From a virus (Duplodnaviria > Heunggongvirae > Uroviricota > Caudoviricetes): 8,853 nt of DNA. Below the pieces are notes generated by a model. That model saw only the letters and a list, made by a program, of their open reading frames with translations. It searched no databases and was not told the DNA's origin. The stretch covers positions 1 through 8,853 of IMG/VR virus record IMGVR_UViG_2778261463_000008. One strand, 5' to 3'. Shown piece by piece: positions 2,908 to 8,853 of this stretch (position 1 is its first letter; each line of letters begins with the position of its first letter). A program made the position numbers and the translations under genes.

Positions 2908-3444
2908 ATGTCAAATGTGAGCGGGATCGGTGATGCTTATTACTGGAGTGTTTTTAAAATCGCTGAGGCCTTTGGGCTTCACCGGGACACAGTAAAAAAA
3001 CGGCTCCTCGCGGCCAACACTCCTGTGGCTGCGACTGTCAGGGGGAACCCCGTTTACGCCCTGCAGCATGTCGGGCCAGCCCTGTTTAGTGTGAAGCATG
3101 AGGCAGCAGACTCTGTTCATGATCCATCCCGTATGGAGCCGAAAGAGAGAAAGGACTGGTACCAGTCTGAAAATGAAAGGATCAAGCTGGAAAAGGAGCA
3201 GCGAAAACTCATCCCCGTTGATGAAGTAGTCATCGTCTATTCGTCCATGAGAAAGGCTGTCGTCCAGGTTCTGGAGACAATTCCGGATGTTCTTGAACGC
3301 GATTGCGCCCTGACTCCTCAGGCCGTCGGCGTTGTACAGCAGGCCATTGATGACCTGCGATACACTCTTCAGGAAAAATCCTACGAGGCTTGTGCTGCTG
3401 AATTAATTCCTGATGAGGAAGGAGAGAGTCTCCAGGAGGAATAA
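2908..3444 (+). CDS. Terminase small subunit (lambda Nu1-like)
   Basis: Immediately downstream of cos and upstream of the large subunit; its stop TAA is directly followed by the large-subunit ATG. N-terminal helix-turn-helix-like region, acidic C-terminus. GGAG 7 nt upstream of ATG 2908. The ATG at 2878 listed in the track has no ribosome-binding site. Confidence 0.8.
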   Translation: MSNVSGIGDAYYWSVFKIAEAFGLHRDTVKKRLLAANTPVAATVRGNPVYALQHVGPALFSVKHEAADSVHDPSRMEPKERKDWYQSENERIKLEKEQRKLIPVDEVVIVYSSMRKAVVQVLETIPDVLERDCALTPQAVGVVQQAIDDLRYTLQEKSYEACAAELIPDEEGESLQEE

Positions 3445-5543
3445 TGGGTTTTTCATCAGCGCGAAATTTGGGAAGGGACATATCGGCAGGATTTTCCCCA
3501 CCACGTCGCATGCCGATTTCGGAGGCTGTTAAAAAATTCATGCGTGTTCCCAAGGGGGCTGGTAACTCGGTGCCATGGGATCCTGAACTGACACCCTACA
3601 TCATTGAGCCCATGAACTGCCTGGCATCGCGTGAATACGATGCGGTGATTTTTGTTGGTCCTGCGCGAACAGGGAAGACCATTGGTCTGATCGATGGATG
3701 GATTGTCTATACCATCGTTTGCGATCCTTCGGACATGCTCGTTGTGCAGATGACCGAAGATAAGGCCCGCGAGCATTCTAAAAAGCGCCTCGACAGAACG
3801 TTCAGAAGCAGTGCGGCGGTAAAGAAAAGAATGAGTCCACGTCGTAACGACAATAATGTCCATGATAAGACGTTCAGGGATGGCTCGTTCCTTAAAATTG
3901 GTTGGCCCTCGGTCAACATTATGTCGTCGTCGGATTACCGGTTTGTCGCCTTAACCGATTACGACCGTTTTCCGGAGAATATCGACAGCGAGGGTGATGG
4001 TTTCTCCCTGGCCTCAAAACGTACCACCACATTTATGTCCGCCGGGATGACTCTGGTGGAGAGCTCGCCGGGACGTGACATCTGCGACAGCAAATGGCGA
4101 CGTAAGTCGCCTCATGAAGCGCCACCGACGACTGGTATTCTTTCCCTTTACAATCGTGGTGACCGCCGCCGCTGGTACTGGCCATGTCCGCACTGCGGTG
4201 AATATTTTCAGCCAGCCATGGATGCCATGACCGGCTACCGTAATGAACCGGATCCCTTTAAAGCCAGTGAGGCGACGTATCTACTTTGCCCGCACTGCAG
4301 CGGCATTATCACTGCGGAGAAAAAGCGTGAGCTCAATAGTGCAGGAGTCTGGTTACGTGAAGGTCAGGTCATTGATCGTAACGGCAACGTTTCCGGTGAA
4401 CCGCGCCGCTCCCGTATCGCCAGTTTCTGGATGGAAGGGCCAGCTGCTGCGTATGAGACCTGGGCGCAACTGGTTTACAAATTACTGACTGCAGAACAGG
4501 AGTATGAAGCGACAGGAAGCGAAGAAACACTCAGGGCGGTTATCAACACCGACTGGGGATTGCCTTATCTTCCCCGCGCCAGCATGGAGCAACGAAAAAG
4601 TGAACTGCTTGAGCAGCGGGCAGAGCCAGTTCCTTCACGCAGTGTGCCGGATGGCGTTAATTTCCTTGTGGCGACAGTGGATGTGCAGGCGGGACGTCAT
4701 CGCCGTTTTGTGGTTCAGGTAACGGGCTATGGCAGTCGTGGCGAACGCTGGATTATTGATCGTTACAACATCACGCAGTCATTGCGCGGTGACAGCGACG
4801 GGGAGAGCCAGCGAATTGATCCGGCCAGCTATCCGGAAGACTGGGATGTCCTGCTGACGGATGTTTTTCATAAAAGCTGGCCGCTGGCCTCCGATCCTTC
4901 TCAACAAATGCGACTGATGGCAATGGCGGTGGACTCCGGCGGTGAAGACGGGGTCACTGATAATGCCTATAAATTCTGGCGTCGTTGCCGTCGTGATGGA
5001 CTTGGTAAAAGTATTTACCTGTTTAAGGGCGACAGCATCCGGCGAGCAAAACTGATCACCCGTACATTCCCTGATAACACCGGACGAACGGGCCGACGGG
5101 CGCAGGCCGCAGGTGATGTGCCACTCTGGCTTCTTCAGACGGATGCCCTGAAAGACCGGGTTAATAATGCGTTATGGCGTGATTCACCGGGTCCCGGCTA
5201 TGTGCATTTTCCTGACTGGCTGGGGAGCTGGTTTTACGACGAACTGACGTATGAAGAGCGGAGCAGTGACGGAAAGTGGAGCAAACCAGGGCGGGGGGCT
5301 AACGAAGCCTTTGACCTGATGGTGTATGCCGAGGCTCTGGTCATTCTGCATGGTTACGAGAAAATTCAGTGGCCGGATGCGCCGGAATGGGCATGCAGGG
5401 AAACCTGGCTGGAGTGCGTCAGTGATAACACTGAGCAACCTGTTCTGCCGGAGCCAGTGCTCCAGCCGGACAGAAAAAAGAAACGAAAAAAAACGGTACC
5501 CGATGAGGAAAATCCCTGGGTGACTTCCGGAGGATGGTTATGA
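3444..5543 (+). CDS. Terminase large subunit (lambda gpA family)
   Basis: 699 aa. Walker A motif VGPARTGKT (nt 3657-3680). Two CPHC motifs (WPCPHCGEYF and LCPHCSG) as in lambda gpA. AGGAGG ribosome-binding site 4-5 nt upstream. Lys-rich C-terminus. Confidence 0.92.
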   Translation: MGFSSARNLGRDISAGFSPPRRMPISEAVKKFMRVPKGAGNSVPWDPELTPYIIEPMNCLASREYDAVIFVGPARTGKTIGLIDGWIVYTIVCDPSDMLVVQMTEDKAREHSKKRLDRTFRSSAAVKKRMSPRRNDNNVHDKTFRDGSFLKIGWPSVNIMSSSDYRFVALTDYDRFPENIDSEGDGFSLASKRTTTFMSAGMTLVESSPGRDICDSKWRRKSPHEAPPTTGILSLYNRGDRRRWYWPCPHCGEYFQPAMDAMTGYRNEPDPFKASEATYLLCPHCSGIITAEKKRELNSAGVWLREGQVIDRNGNVSGEPRRSRIASFWMEGPAAAYETWAQLVYKLLTAEQEYEATGSEETLRAVINTDWGLPYLPRASMEQRKSELLEQRAEPVPSRSVPDGVNFLVATVDVQAGRHRRFVVQVTGYGSRGERWIIDRYNITQSLRGDSDGESQRIDPASYPEDWDVLLTDVFHKSWPLASDPSQQMRLMAMAVDSGGEDGVTDNAYKFWRRCRRDGLGKSIYLFKGDSIRRAKLITRTFPDNTGRTGRRAQAAGDVPLWLLQTDALKDRVNNALWRDSPGPGYVHFPDWLGSWFYDELTYEERSSDGKWSKPGRGANEAFDLMVYAEALVILHGYEKIQWPDAPEWACRETWLECVSDNTEQPVLPEPVLQPDRKKKRKKTVPDEENPWVTSGGWL

Positions 5544-5752
5544 ACCAGAATGATATTGAAGCCATGATCCAGCGTTATATCGATGCGGAAATGGCAGTTC
5601 TGGACGGAAAATCCGTCACTTTTAATGGTCAGCAGATGACCATGGAAAATCTGTCCGAGATCCGACGGGGGCGTCAGGAGTGGGAGCGGCGTCTTGCTGC
5701 CATGACTGCGCGGCGACGGGGGGATCCGGGATATAAACTGGCGAGGTTCTGA
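5540..5752 (+). CDS. Head-tail joining protein (lambda gpW-like), 70 aa
   Basis: Small ORF between terminase and portal. ATG overlaps the terminase stop (ATGA), with GGAGG 6 nt upstream. Its stop overlaps the portal ATG (TGATG). Size and position match lambda gpW. The ATG at 5534 is an alternative start. Confidence 0.75.
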   Translation: MNQNDIEAMIQRYIDAEMAVLDGKSVTFNGQQMTMENLSEIRRGRQEWERRLAAMTARRRGDPGYKLARF

Positions 5753-6657
5753 TGGCAATTCTGGATGATGTGATTGGTGCTTTTTCACCAGGCTGGAAAG
5801 CTGCGAGGTTGCGGTCAAGAGCATTAATTCAGGCCTATGAGGCAGTGAAACCTACCCGCACACACAAAGCCCGACGGGAAAACCGTTCTGCCGACCAGCT
5901 CAGTAAGTACGGGGCGGTATCCCTGCGGGAGCAGGCCCGTTTTCTGGATATCAATCATGACCTTGTCATCGGTGCTTTCGACAAGCTTGAGGAGCGGGTG
6001 ATTGGCGCAAAAGGGATCATTGTTGAACCCCAGCCATTACTGAAAAACGGTGATATGGCTACAGACCTGGCAATGATTATCCGTCGTTTGTGGGCGGAAT
6101 GGTCTGTCAGCCCGGATGTGACCGGGCAGCATACGCGCCCCATGCTCGAGCGTTTGTTGCTGCGTACCTGGTTACGTGATGGTGAAGTGTTTGCCCAGAT
6201 GGTCAGTGGTGCAGGGGCCGGACTGGTGCGGACTGCCGGCGTGCCTTTCTGGCTCGAGGCAATGGAGCCGGATTTTGTACCCATGTTCAGTGATGAGTCT
6301 GCGGGAATGAATCAGGGGGTTTTTCTGGATGAGTGGGGCAGGCCGAAAAAATACCTGGTTTATAAAAATTATCCGGTCACCGGGCGACAGAGTGATACCA
6401 AAGAGATCGCCGCTGAAAATATGGTGCATCTGAAGTTTACCCGCCGGCTGCATCAGACGCGTGGCACATCCATGTTGTCAGGTGTGCTGATGCGGATCAG
6501 CGCGCTTAAGGAATATGAAGATTCCGAGCTGACAGCGGCGCGCATTGCTGCAGCACTGGGGCTGTATATCCGTAAAGGAGACGGGCAGGATTATGAGGCC
6601 CCCGTTCTTCCCATTCTCCTGACAGTTACCGAGTCCATACGGGAACACACAGACTGA
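5752..6657 (+). CDS. Portal protein (lambda gpB family), N-terminal fragment, disrupted at ~6613
   Basis: Aligns with recalled lambda gpB through a shared ...QTRG... block up to ...EAPVLP (residue 287, nt 6612). The last 14 codons (ILLTVTESIREHTD) and the stop are non-homologous read-through into the junction. The portal C-terminal half is found on the opposite strand at ~8200-8807. Confidence 0.85.
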   Translation: MAILDDVIGAFSPGWKAARLRSRALIQAYEAVKPTRTHKARRENRSADQLSKYGAVSLREQARFLDINHDLVIGAFDKLEERVIGAKGIIVEPQPLLKNGDMATDLAMIIRRLWAEWSVSPDVTGQHTRPMLERLLLRTWLRDGEVFAQMVSGAGAGLVRTAGVPFWLEAMEPDFVPMFSDESAGMNQGVFLDEWGRPKKYLVYKNYPVTGRQSDTKEIAAENMVHLKFTRRLHQTRGTSMLSGVLMRISALKEYEDSELTAARIAAALGLYIRKGDGQDYEAPVLPILLTVTESIREHTD

Positions 6658-6667
6658 AAGGGGGGCA

Positions 6668-7138
6668 TCATGAACCACCCCGATCGCCTTTTTCGCCCTT
6701 CGGCCCCTGAGGTCCTGCCGGGCCACGCTCACCTGTATCACCCTTTGGCCCCTGAGGTCCCGGCTCTCCCTTTTCTCCTCTCGGGCCCGTGTCCCCCTTT
6801 TCTCCCCTGGCACCACCAAAGTTAATCCTGACAGCGACGACATCACTCCCGGTACCAGCCTCTTCCCAGACAACCCCGACCAGCGGATCAGAGCCGCTGT
6901 TAGTCAGCTGAACTTTTCCGGACTTCAGATAAACCTTCTTACCCGTTTTCATATCATCCGTTTTCAGCTTAGGCAGCATAAACACACCTTCGGTCATGCC
7001 GTCGCCTGTTTCACCCTGTGGAATATCGGTCAGCGCCACCGCAAAAACATCACCCACCTGCACCAGATCTCCGCTGCTGATGGCTGCACTGGCAACAATC
7101 GCCACCGTTTTTCCTTCTTCTACAAAATTCTTTGCCAT
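6668..7138 (-). CDS. Head decoration-like protein (DUF2190 family) with C-terminal collagen-like Gly-X-Y repeat tail, 156 aa
   Basis: ATG at 7138 with GGAGA 7 nt upstream. N-terminal ~110 aa ([30 protein letters not shown]...[15 protein letters not shown]) matches the DUF2190 pattern. The C-terminal ~45 aa is uninterrupted G-X-Y ([43 protein letters not shown]). Confidence 0.8.
6696..6760. repeat. Direct repeat of a 45-bp unit inside the collagen-like coding region
   Basis: CCCTTCGGCCCCTGAGGTCC (6696-6715) and CCCTTTGGCCCCTGAGGTCC (6741-6760) are 19/20 identical and 45 bp apart, which is five G-X-Y triplets. Confidence 0.7.
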
Positions 7139-7185
7139 AACTGTCTCCACACAGCCCCGTTCAGGGGCTGATTTCAGGTACAAAA

Positions 7186-7204
7186 AAAGCCCTTACGGGC
7201 CATC
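7186..7204 (-). terminator. Weak Rho-independent terminator or attenuator after the 521-aa ORF
   Basis: On the minus strand: GGCCC-GTAA-GGGCT (5-bp stem including one G-U pair) followed by TTTTTTTG. It sits between the stop of 7225..8790 and the start of the decoration gene. A second 7-bp hairpin (CAGCCCC-GTTCA-GGGGCTG, 7152-7170) has no T tract. Confidence 0.3.
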
Positions 7205-7224
7205 AGAGTTGTTGTCTGCGATGT

Positions 7225-8790
7225 TTACGCCGTACATTTCACCAGACCGCGGTGATCAACTGGCGCGACACCGGCGTCAATACGCACTTTCGTTGTCACG
7301 CCATCCACACTGAACCCCTCCATCTGATCAATATATGGCGTATCCACACCGTTGAGATAAGCCACTTCAATCGTATCGGAGCCTTTTGACGCAGCCAGGT
7401 AGAAGGTGGTCTGGCTGTTATCATCAAGACGAGGCTCTGCAATAACGGTCGCAAAATCTTTCACCGGGTTAATAATACCGGCGTTAATGTCAGCCCCCTT
7501 GACACTTGAGGAGCGAATGACCTGGTTAGCAACAGACTCCATCGCCGTCGGTACCAGTACGAACGCAGGACGAATATTCAGATGACGCTCCCCCTCTTTC
7601 TGAACGCGCATCAACTGGCGGGCTTTATCCAGCGATGCCACGTCCATTGCAGCGCTCTCCAGTACGTTTGCATGTTTCGCTTTATCGAACAGACTTACAT
7701 TATCTGTGGAGATTTTCGGGTTAGACGTCAGAATGGCATAAACCAGATCGGCAATAGTGGATTTCGCCGCACGGCCCAGTTTCATCGGGACATCGGTCAG
7801 CATATTCAGATCATCATTGATAATGGCCTGACGGGTGATACTGAACAGCTCGCCATAGGTCGCCAGTGCAATAGTGGCCTGTTTATCTCCGGTGGTGATG
7901 TATTTATATTCCGCCCCTTCACGCACCTGACGCAGAGCACTGAAGCCCCCCATACCCACACGATGAGCAATTTTAAAATCAGACAACTGACCTTTCCGCG
8001 TCCACTGTTCATAGGTTTCAGGGGCATCTTCCCAGCCCTGCAGAATGGCTTTGTTCGCAACATCCAGCAGAATATTACCGAAGTCAGACGTACTGTGTGT
8101 GAACGCCGCACCGACCATCTGCATCGGGTTATAACCGGAAACCCCAATACCCCGTTCAGTCAGTGACATACGGGCATATTCACGCAGGGTCATCCCGTTG
8201 TAGACATTATCACGTTCGGTTTTTTCAAATCCGGCACGCGCCATCAGCGCCTGGCGGATCCCGTCCCCCACAAAATTACCGTTACGACCACCTGCACGTA
8301 CCCAGTCTGATTCTGTCGCCGCTCCACCACGAATCTGAATTTTCCAGGCTTCAGCTTCCTTGACAGGATCAATCCACGGCATGACCGGACCAGAATAGGT
8401 TGCGTTATATAGTGTTTTCATATCCACATCCGACGTAATTTTCAGCAATCCCGCGGCCACAACCATATTCAGCCATGCCCGGTACACCGGACGGGTTACA
8501 GCACCAATAAAACAGTCCTGCAGGATCAGATAACCATCTGTGGACTCAACCAGCTCCTGTCGCTGGGCACTGTAGGTACCGTTATAATTACGTGCTGCAC
8601 TGGAAAAACTCAGACGTGTGCCCGCCGCCACGGCCCGCAACTGACCATTACGAAAAGTTTCCAGGTTAGTGTTAGGCCGATCAGATTTGACCATGCCGAT
8701 ATCTTCCCCCTTACGCAGATCGTCATAAATAATTCCGGGTGTGATATGCAGTTCCCGATCATTATCTTTATTCGTCACGGCAAGGTGCAC
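7225..8790 (-). CDS. Portal protein C-terminal half fused in frame to a ~320-aa head-morphogenesis domain (protease/scaffold or capsid-like); 521 aa
   Basis: Residues ~1-190 align with the recalled C-terminal region of lambda gpB, with consistent spacing across several blocks (FRNGQLRAVAAGTRLSFSSAARNY, WIDPVKEAEAWKIQIRGGAATE, IRQALMARAG). No stop codon and no internal ribosome-binding site before the downstream ~320 aa. The annotated start is a GTG directly after an in-frame TAA at 8806-8808; there is no ATG until codon 33, so this is an internal gene fragment, not a native start. Confidence 0.75.
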   Translation of the reverse strand: MHLAVTNKDNDRELHITPGIIYDDLRKGEDIGMVKSDRPNTNLETFRNGQLRAVAAGTRLSFSSAARNYNGTYSAQRQELVESTDGYLILQDCFIGAVTRPVYRAWLNMVVAAGLLKITSDVDMKTLYNATYSGPVMPWIDPVKEAEAWKIQIRGGAATESDWVRAGGRNGNFVGDGIRQALMARAGFEKTERDNVYNGMTLREYARMSLTERGIGVSGYNPMQMVGAAFTHSTSDFGNILLDVANKAILQGWEDAPETYEQWTRKGQLSDFKIAHRVGMGGFSALRQVREGAEYKYITTGDKQATIALATYGELFSITRQAIINDDLNMLTDVPMKLGRAAKSTIADLVYAILTSNPKISTDNVSLFDKAKHANVLESAAMDVASLDKARQLMRVQKEGERHLNIRPAFVLVPTAMESVANQVIRSSSVKGADINAGIINPVKDFATVIAEPRLDDNSQTTFYLAASKGSDTIEVAYLNGVDTPYIDQMEGFSVDGVTTKVRIDAGVAPVDHRGLVKCTA

Positions 8791-8853
8791 CTTACTCCGG
8801 CTCAGTTATCCATGCTTCTTGAAGGTATCAACTGGAAGCACCCGAAACGAACG

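Follow-up and report, generated by a model that had tools for sequence, protein, structure and literature searches.

The 521-codon open frame at positions 7225 to 8790 of the window (the whole 8,853-nucleotide stretch of DNA that was analysed) is, at a probability that we put at about 90%, a non-functional chimeric remnant, or pseudogene, in a defective lambdoid E. coli prophage of the mEp460/Gifsy-2 type. In the ORF listing of the window the frame comprises 521 codons plus stop, unbroken between 8790 and 7225 on the minus strand, and it draws on three sources: codons 1-4 are IS66-family tnpB sequence read in antisense, codons 5-170 correspond to portal residues ~285-451, and codons 170-521 correspond to residues 301-652 of the protease-scaffold-capsid protein of mEp460/Gifsy-2-type phages, with 99.4% identity. 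When compared by blastp with proteins translated from related records, frame residues 5-174 matched portal residues 285-454 (94%, E. coli DS26-1) and frame residues 170-521 matched residues 301-652 of phage mEp460 gp05 (99.4%). Pfam placed positions 273-354 of the portal model PF05136 on frame residues 10-91 and positions 7-261 of the 262 in PF25209 (Phage_capsid_4, 3e-54) on residues 226-518, beside a weaker match to Mu gpT, while NCBIfam placed positions 266-432 of the 457 in TIGR01539 on residues 8-170 and positions 300-651 of the 652 in NF045540 on residues 169-520, the latter with 566 bits against a cut-off of 475. The TIGR01539 score (170.3 bits) fell below the family cut-off of 172.7, and the frame is not a full-length lambda-family portal of ~500 residues, as it covers only model positions 266-432 and portal residues 1-285 lie separately. 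Scans of the 521-residue product with Pfam and NCBIfam returned no PF00574, PF01972, Clp or S49 match, in agreement with a sequence-only reading of this DNA that had seen no S49 or ClpP motif in the second domain.

The same reading had described a long open frame with a portal-like first third and a second domain continuing in frame, which the ORF listing, Pfam and NCBIfam all confirmed. Its second domain stands, with other limits: instead of a boundary at residues 190-200 followed by ~320 residues, blastp and the nucleotide junction placed the boundary at residue 170 (...WVRAGGRN/GNFVGDG..., the slash marking the joint), so that the second part comprises 352 residues and the GNFVGDGIRQALMARAGFEK stretch belongs already to the second gene and not to the portal. 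The guess that this domain could be capsid-like proved right, given the Phage_capsid_4 match, the NF045540 match over 300-651 and the identity to mEp460 gp05 301-652. The segment from the second gene (7225..8285, minus strand; codons 301-652 plus stop) holds the last ~55 residues before the Pfam capsid match and the entire capsid-shell domain (Pfam match 7237-8115); upstream of that match, where the scaffold-like segment would lie, only gp05 residues 301 to ~356 are left. Membership of this C-terminal part in the HK97-fold major capsid proteins is predicted from sequence families; its sequence matched the solved Mu GpT-domain capsid proteins 8rkx and 8rkc weakly (E 2e-4), and an AlphaFold2 model of the domain reached a mean pLDDT of 33.9, too low to be of use, from a shallow alignment (15 close homologues, at least 80% identical).

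The two phage-derived parts meet at a deletion junction, J2, at 8282..8285. By blastn, the window matched mEp460 in two pieces, 6851-8285 (98.5%) and 8282-8739 (81.5%), which overlap by 4 bases in the window and lie 1,072 bases apart in mEp460, with DS26-1 giving the same picture. Alignment to both parental sites in mEp460 and DS26-1 showed the portal parent as ...GGTGGTCGTAA/TCCGGAT..., the capsid-gene parent as ...GCCGGTAA/CGGTAATTTT... and the window product as ...GGTGGTCGTAACGGTAATTTT..., with the crossover lying within the microhomology GTAA on the minus strand and the Asn codon there being common to portal N451 and protease/capsid N301. The bases absent from the window comprise portal codons 452-502 with their stop, the spacer, and codons 1-300 of the downstream gene, i.e. 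900 bases encoding the ClpP protease and most of the scaffold segment. In mEp460 the two genes differ in frame by +1, and 1,072 bases equal 357 codons plus one base, which offsets this difference exactly; the joint is therefore in frame. The in-frame outcome is due to chance, the prior for a random deletion being 1 in 3. The long open frame itself is not a chance event, because two real coding sequences were joined in frame by the deletion. Upstream of J2, the portal fragment (8286..8780, minus strand; codons ~285-450 of ~502, frame residues 5-169), which was identified by PF05136, TIGR01539 and blastp, shares 99.8% DNA identity with the portal gene of the closed E. coli genome GF4, where it is contiguous with the N-terminal part.

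The parental arrangement was found intact in relatives. A megablast search of 5500-8853 against phage records returned mEp460, cdtI, Ayreon and others at ~95% identity, and in each of the 16 close phage records, as well as in the complete genomes listed, the two-piece match extended over ~2,961-3,032 bases, compared with 1,889-1,928 in the window. In all of these relatives the portal gene, with a stop of its own, and the protease/capsid gene are separate, which is what an alignment with related prophages, proposed in the sequence-only reading as a check on the boundary, was meant to reveal. In mEp460 the terminase and head-tail adaptor genes precede the portal gene (1,509 bases), which a spacer of 13 bases separates from gp05 (1,959 bases), and the terminator, decoration gene and tail genes come after; in DS26-1 the portal and the downstream gene overlap. 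Complete E. coli genomes follow the same order, with PGAP names of 'phage portal protein' and 'ClpP-like prohead protease/major capsid protein fusion protein', and the annotation of mEp460 gp05 calls it a head maturation protease and compares it to the cdtI protease/scaffold protein. Intact relatives have a portal gene of ~502 codons, one tripartite gene and then a decoration gene; the product of the tripartite gene begins with a ClpP-like prohead protease, continues through a scaffold-like segment and ends in the major capsid protein. A profile built from intact family members matched solved ClpP structures at positions 55-198, a region missing from the window's frame. A tripartite capsid gene of this kind in Gifsy-2 is attributed to a 2010 study in a passage of PMC12315714, and a passage of PMC8538268 also refers to it.

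The window's gene resembles the NF045540 tripartite gene in its capsid domain (99.4% identical to that of mEp460 gp05) and in the terminator and DUF2190 decoration gene that follow, but it lacks the first 300 codons, which encode the protease and most of the scaffold, and has a portal fragment in their place. Likewise, its residues 5-170 equal positions 266-432 of the lambda-family portal model (gpB; PF05136, TIGR01539) and the N-terminal 285 codons lie nearby on the other strand, whereas, unlike such a portal, the gene is split by an inversion, has lost its final ~51 residues and is fused to a different gene. The head genes of lambda run in the order B, C/Nu3, D, E. The present locus shares with that order a portal in first place and a decoration protein nearby; it differs in that protease, scaffold and capsid form one gene before the decoration gene, with no S49-type gpC or nested Nu3. 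The lambda order is thus the wrong template for mEp460/Gifsy-2-type phages, and the earlier placement of the second domain in a protease/scaffold slot, which followed that template, has to be given up: since the actual order is portal, protease-scaffold-capsid gene and decoration gene, the domain sits at the place of the capsid protein, and the protease expected before it has been deleted.

The chimeric frame lies within an inverted block. On the plus strand, a gpA-type large terminase (3444-5543) and a small head-tail gene (5534-5752) are followed by portal codons 1-285 (5752..6605; PF05136 model 3-252, TIGR01539 223 bits), which are 99.97% identical to GF4 up to 6605; the listed ORF 5752-6657 (301 codons) reads 17 unrelated codons after this portal part. 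At junction J1 (6602-6605, overlap CCGT) the window passes, in inverted orientation, into the next head-tail gene, a 'DNA breaking-rejoining protein' (PF13856, Gifsy-2) that is cut by the junction and represented by its first 70 bases (6602..6671, minus strand; aligned to GF4 17672-17741), while in GF4 the portal is unbroken across this point. The block continues on the minus strand with a head decoration (cement) gene of the DUF2190/Phage_cement_2 family (6668..7138, 156 codons; PF09956, 9e-21), a terminator-like hairpin after the capsid gene stop (7188..7201), detected by a terminator scan and matching in position a rho-independent terminator annotated in mEp460, the capsid part and the portal fragment, so that the order of portal fragment, capsid part, terminator and decoration gene is preserved inside it. 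The sign of the GC skew switches near 6500-6750, which agrees with an inverted block. With the inversion restored, the portal frame would comprise ~802 codons (285 + 517), close to the ~810 residues that had been estimated from the sequence alone. The tail of the decoration protein (6668-6820, minus strand) carries ~49 C-terminal residues of collagen-like Gly-X-Y sequence (PF01391 Collagen, 2e-7), which are absent from the 107-residue mEp460 decoration protein and present in GF4 and strain Ch1.

At the other end of the block, junction J3 (8777..8780), defined by aligning the window jointly with tnpB and the portal of GF4, joins the inverted portal to the interior of tnpB with the overlap ACGG, the same portal tetranucleotide as CCGT at J1. 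The tnpB interior fragment (8777..8853, plus strand), from an ISCro1-like element of the IS66 family, has a 100% match in ~1,450 E. coli genomes, and it is within this repeat that the contig stops. The portal tetranucleotide CCGT/ACGG therefore occurs at either end of the inverted block and also in both partner sequences; a 4-base staggered break with microhomology joining would give such J1 and J3 ends, one partner being the tnpB interior and not an IS end. Transposition from an IS end was rejected as the cause of the 8777-8780 junction, as the IS66-family match begins within the tnpB coding sequence, ~1 kb from the end of the element. A single common ancestor for the structures in the window and in GF4 was rejected as well: the GF4 prophage is 99.9% identical and carries comparable rearrangements, but its portal is intact across codon 285 and its next gene is intact, and therefore neither structure derives simply from the other. 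The GF4 copy has, in addition, an IS150 inserted between the DUF1441 gene and terL (L002 8239-9608) and a deletion that joins a DUF1133 gene fragment to a lysozyme fragment (L002 6001-6002), further evidence of rapid decay in this prophage lineage.

We propose that a RecA-independent, microhomology-mediated deletion at GTAA, by slippage or end-joining, would have removed the 1,072 bases, whereupon the middle of the portal and the capsid-shell part of the neighbouring gene would have fallen into one frame by chance. A further rearrangement would have flipped the segment between portal codon 285 and the beginning of the next head-tail gene and set it beside the interior of the IS66-family element, and this inversion would have severed the portal N-terminus, its start codon and transcription from the late operon. 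Judged from its position, the GTG 'start' of the 521-codon frame (8788-8790, minus strand) is an ORF-finder artefact, because the GTG and the first codons sit in antisense IS66-family tnpB. A promoter scan of 6600-8853 found no promoter-like site and the terminator after the capsid stop is kept; the GTG has a GGAG 5 bases ahead of it, and a read-through transcript from the IS could be translated. The chimera would nevertheless be expected to have no role in morphogenesis, because its portal part lacks the N-terminal 284 residues, its capsid part lacks the protease and scaffold that are normally made with it as one polypeptide, and the frame is severed from the late operon.

The intact capsid domain, 99.4% identical to that of a viable phage, indicates that the remnant is young or possibly conserved. 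In an exapted chimera, the host would keep and express the capsid-shell domain, for example to poison the capsid assembly of superinfecting relatives or to serve a defence system. The completeness of the domain speaks for this, as do the many independent decaying prophages that keep exactly this domain as in-frame fusions, with breakpoints clustering upstream of it. However, the native start has been lost and no promoter was seen, a search that finds only proteins retaining the capsid domain is subject to ascertainment bias, and clustering at the level of single nucleotides points to a mutational and not a selective cause, and we consider exaptation improbable.

The window constitutes the whole draft contig NNVD01000101.1 (GCA_002485525.1), which ends in a repeat and contains three non-canonical junctions, features that a chimeric short-read contig might also show. 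Such an artefact is more improbable still: the sequences overlap by only 4 bases at the junctions, far less than any assembler k-mer; a twin in GCA_002468825.1 (L003) shares the structure and extends 50 bases further into the IS (overhangs of 77 bases in the window and 127 in the twin), which suggests different k-mer settings; and the closed GF4 genome holds the 99.9% identical prophage with its comparable rearrangements. Moreover, the identical fusion (P0001, annotated 'partial') was found in a large protein collection on at least 33 draft E. coli contigs, and in every P0001 contig that was read it lay at the contig end next to the IS and the same prophage genes. None of 5,426 complete E. coli genomes, 2,033 of which matched a 401-base junction probe in part, spans the junction, nor does any of the 31 matching phage records, and no record covered 80% of 5500-8853. 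The fusion is a lineage-specific scar and not a conserved gene, and its persistence in at least 33 assemblies may reflect one clone.

This distribution also bears on the view, one of two origins suggested from the sequence alone, that the frame encodes a natural, functional portal with a capsid- or protease-like C-terminal extension. The frame is indeed open and in frame, and other portal-capsid fusions of 764-882 residues exist in public E. coli data (P0003-P0006); yet they are joined elsewhere (portal 372, 445 or 473 with capsid-gene residue 256 or 243), at least one of them lies in a prophage with further deletions (L012, without terL and with a V-J fusion), and no phage record contains the fusion, the related phages and intact prophages all having separate portal and protease-scaffold-capsid genes. 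Here, in addition, the first 284 portal residues are missing from the frame and located on the other strand, and the frame has neither the portal C-terminus nor the essential prohead protease, leaving this view a very remote prospect; nor do residues 170-521 represent an extended portal C-terminus, the outcome that had been named as a possible refutation, as they match the protease/capsid gene instead. The second suggested origin, read-through between two intact genes after a point mutation or frameshift had removed the portal stop, is scarcely credible even though relatives have the two genes side by side (with a 13-base gap in mEp460 and an overlap in DS26-1), because the 1,072 missing bases include 300 codons of the downstream gene and no Clp domain remains.

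A deletion remnant, by comparison, has close parallels. Fusion pseudogenes formed by deletion in cryptic prophages share with the window short-microhomology junctions, loss of essential morphogenesis functions and the involvement of IS elements, the loci L009-L013 being analogous, and nothing essential sets the window apart from them. Analogous in-frame fusions of the portal, the terminase or a DUF1441 protein to the same capsid domain occur in other decaying prophages, and such scars are therefore common; the present fusion is not novel and adds one more such scar, left by a deletion in a prophage that is decaying. Annotations should record the frame as a pseudogene remnant consisting of a portal fragment and a truncated protease/capsid gene, not as a portal or a new fusion protein, while equivalent proteins now carry public names such as 'phage portal protein' and 'ClpP-like prohead protease/major capsid protein fusion protein, partial'.

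In 19 clusters among the 120 best protein hits, the portal, the large terminase or a DUF1441 protein is fused in frame to the same capsid domain (P0002-P0006, P0026, P0033, P0038-P0044, P0087, P0088, P0093, P0094 and P0097, with loci L009-L013; E. coli and Salmonella). We mapped their breakpoints on mEp460 gp05 and checked five at the DNA level. Residue 73 was used in one Salmonella case, residue 88 with two different partners, residue 242/243 with two partners and residue 348/350 with two partners, while residue 255/256 was joined to five partners (portal 372; terminase 176, 264 and 463; the DUF1441 stop codon), and residue 300/301 was shared by the window, an equivalent Salmonella terminase fusion and an internal duplication junction in P0002. 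Among 14 junctions, 14 pairs lay within two residues of each other, compared with 1.3 expected under uniformity, a value reached in 0 of 200,000 simulations; when the five events at 255 were counted as two, the observed value was reached in 430 of 200,000. Some of the clustered events could be nested deletions, in which the microhomology of an earlier junction was used again. In the portal gene, the breakpoints of the window, GF4 and P0004 fall within 15 bases of each other: the GF4 portal (L002 13350-13360) is broken within 3 bases of the window's and joined to an inverted tape-measure gene through the microhomology AATCC, and the P0004 break lies 15 bases upstream, so that the portal site may be a hot spot or a coincidence.

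Random deletion does not account for the recurrence of near-identical breakpoints in independent prophages. The candidate sites are portal codons 445-451 and tripartite codons 88, 242-243, 255-256, 300-301 and 348-351, two of which are used by the window's junction. That they represent nucleotide-precise hot spots for RecA-independent rearrangement in the head-gene block of mEp460/Gifsy-2-type prophages is a tentative suggestion that we consider unlikely to hold. Site-specific breakage, template switching or selection for an expressible capsid domain could each be the cause, and the search covered only in-frame products that keep the capsid domain, data from which selection and mutation are not separable. 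Hairpin stalling as a general cause was found to be unsupported, as fold results were mixed: when single-stranded DNA of the intact gene was folded in sliding 36-base windows, 4 of the 10 most stable lay near hot spots, compared with ~2 by a rough estimate of chance, and individual folds gave z = -2.1 at the window's capsid-gene site, +0.4 at codon 255-256, the most reused, and +0.6 at the portal site. Nor was any convincing sequence motif common to the breakpoints; the portal site shares ATCAGAC...TGCAGG with the site at codon 255, possibly by chance.

Several of the loci showed further peculiarities. L012 (12245-16171 and 7122-7789), which encodes the 855-residue portal-capsid fusion P0004, has lost most of terL and also carries a 1,308-residue frame in which the major tail protein is fused to the J-type tip protein; this one prophage has therefore undergone several internal deletions, of which two or more are in frame. 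P0026, P0038 and P0039 share an identical junction of terminase residue 463 to Tyr256, but two codons beyond it they encode Thr, Met or Ala (ACG, ATG or GCG, with ATG and GCG each one base from ACG), and two of their terminase alleles have no more than 81% identity; repeated events, recombination that exchanged alleles or hypermutation of the site could each be the cause. In the metagenomic proteins P0029 and P0051, unrelated N-terminal parts resembling a pyridine-nucleotide oxidoreductase and a response-regulator receiver are joined to the same capsid domain, and these are probably chimeric metagenome contigs.

If the hot-spot proposal is true, decaying prophages would repeatedly yield chimeras joined in frame, with the capsid-shell domain preserved in full. 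The reuse of breakpoints is the only point of wider interest in this locus, and, if upheld in a systematic survey, it would inform how prophages are dismantled.
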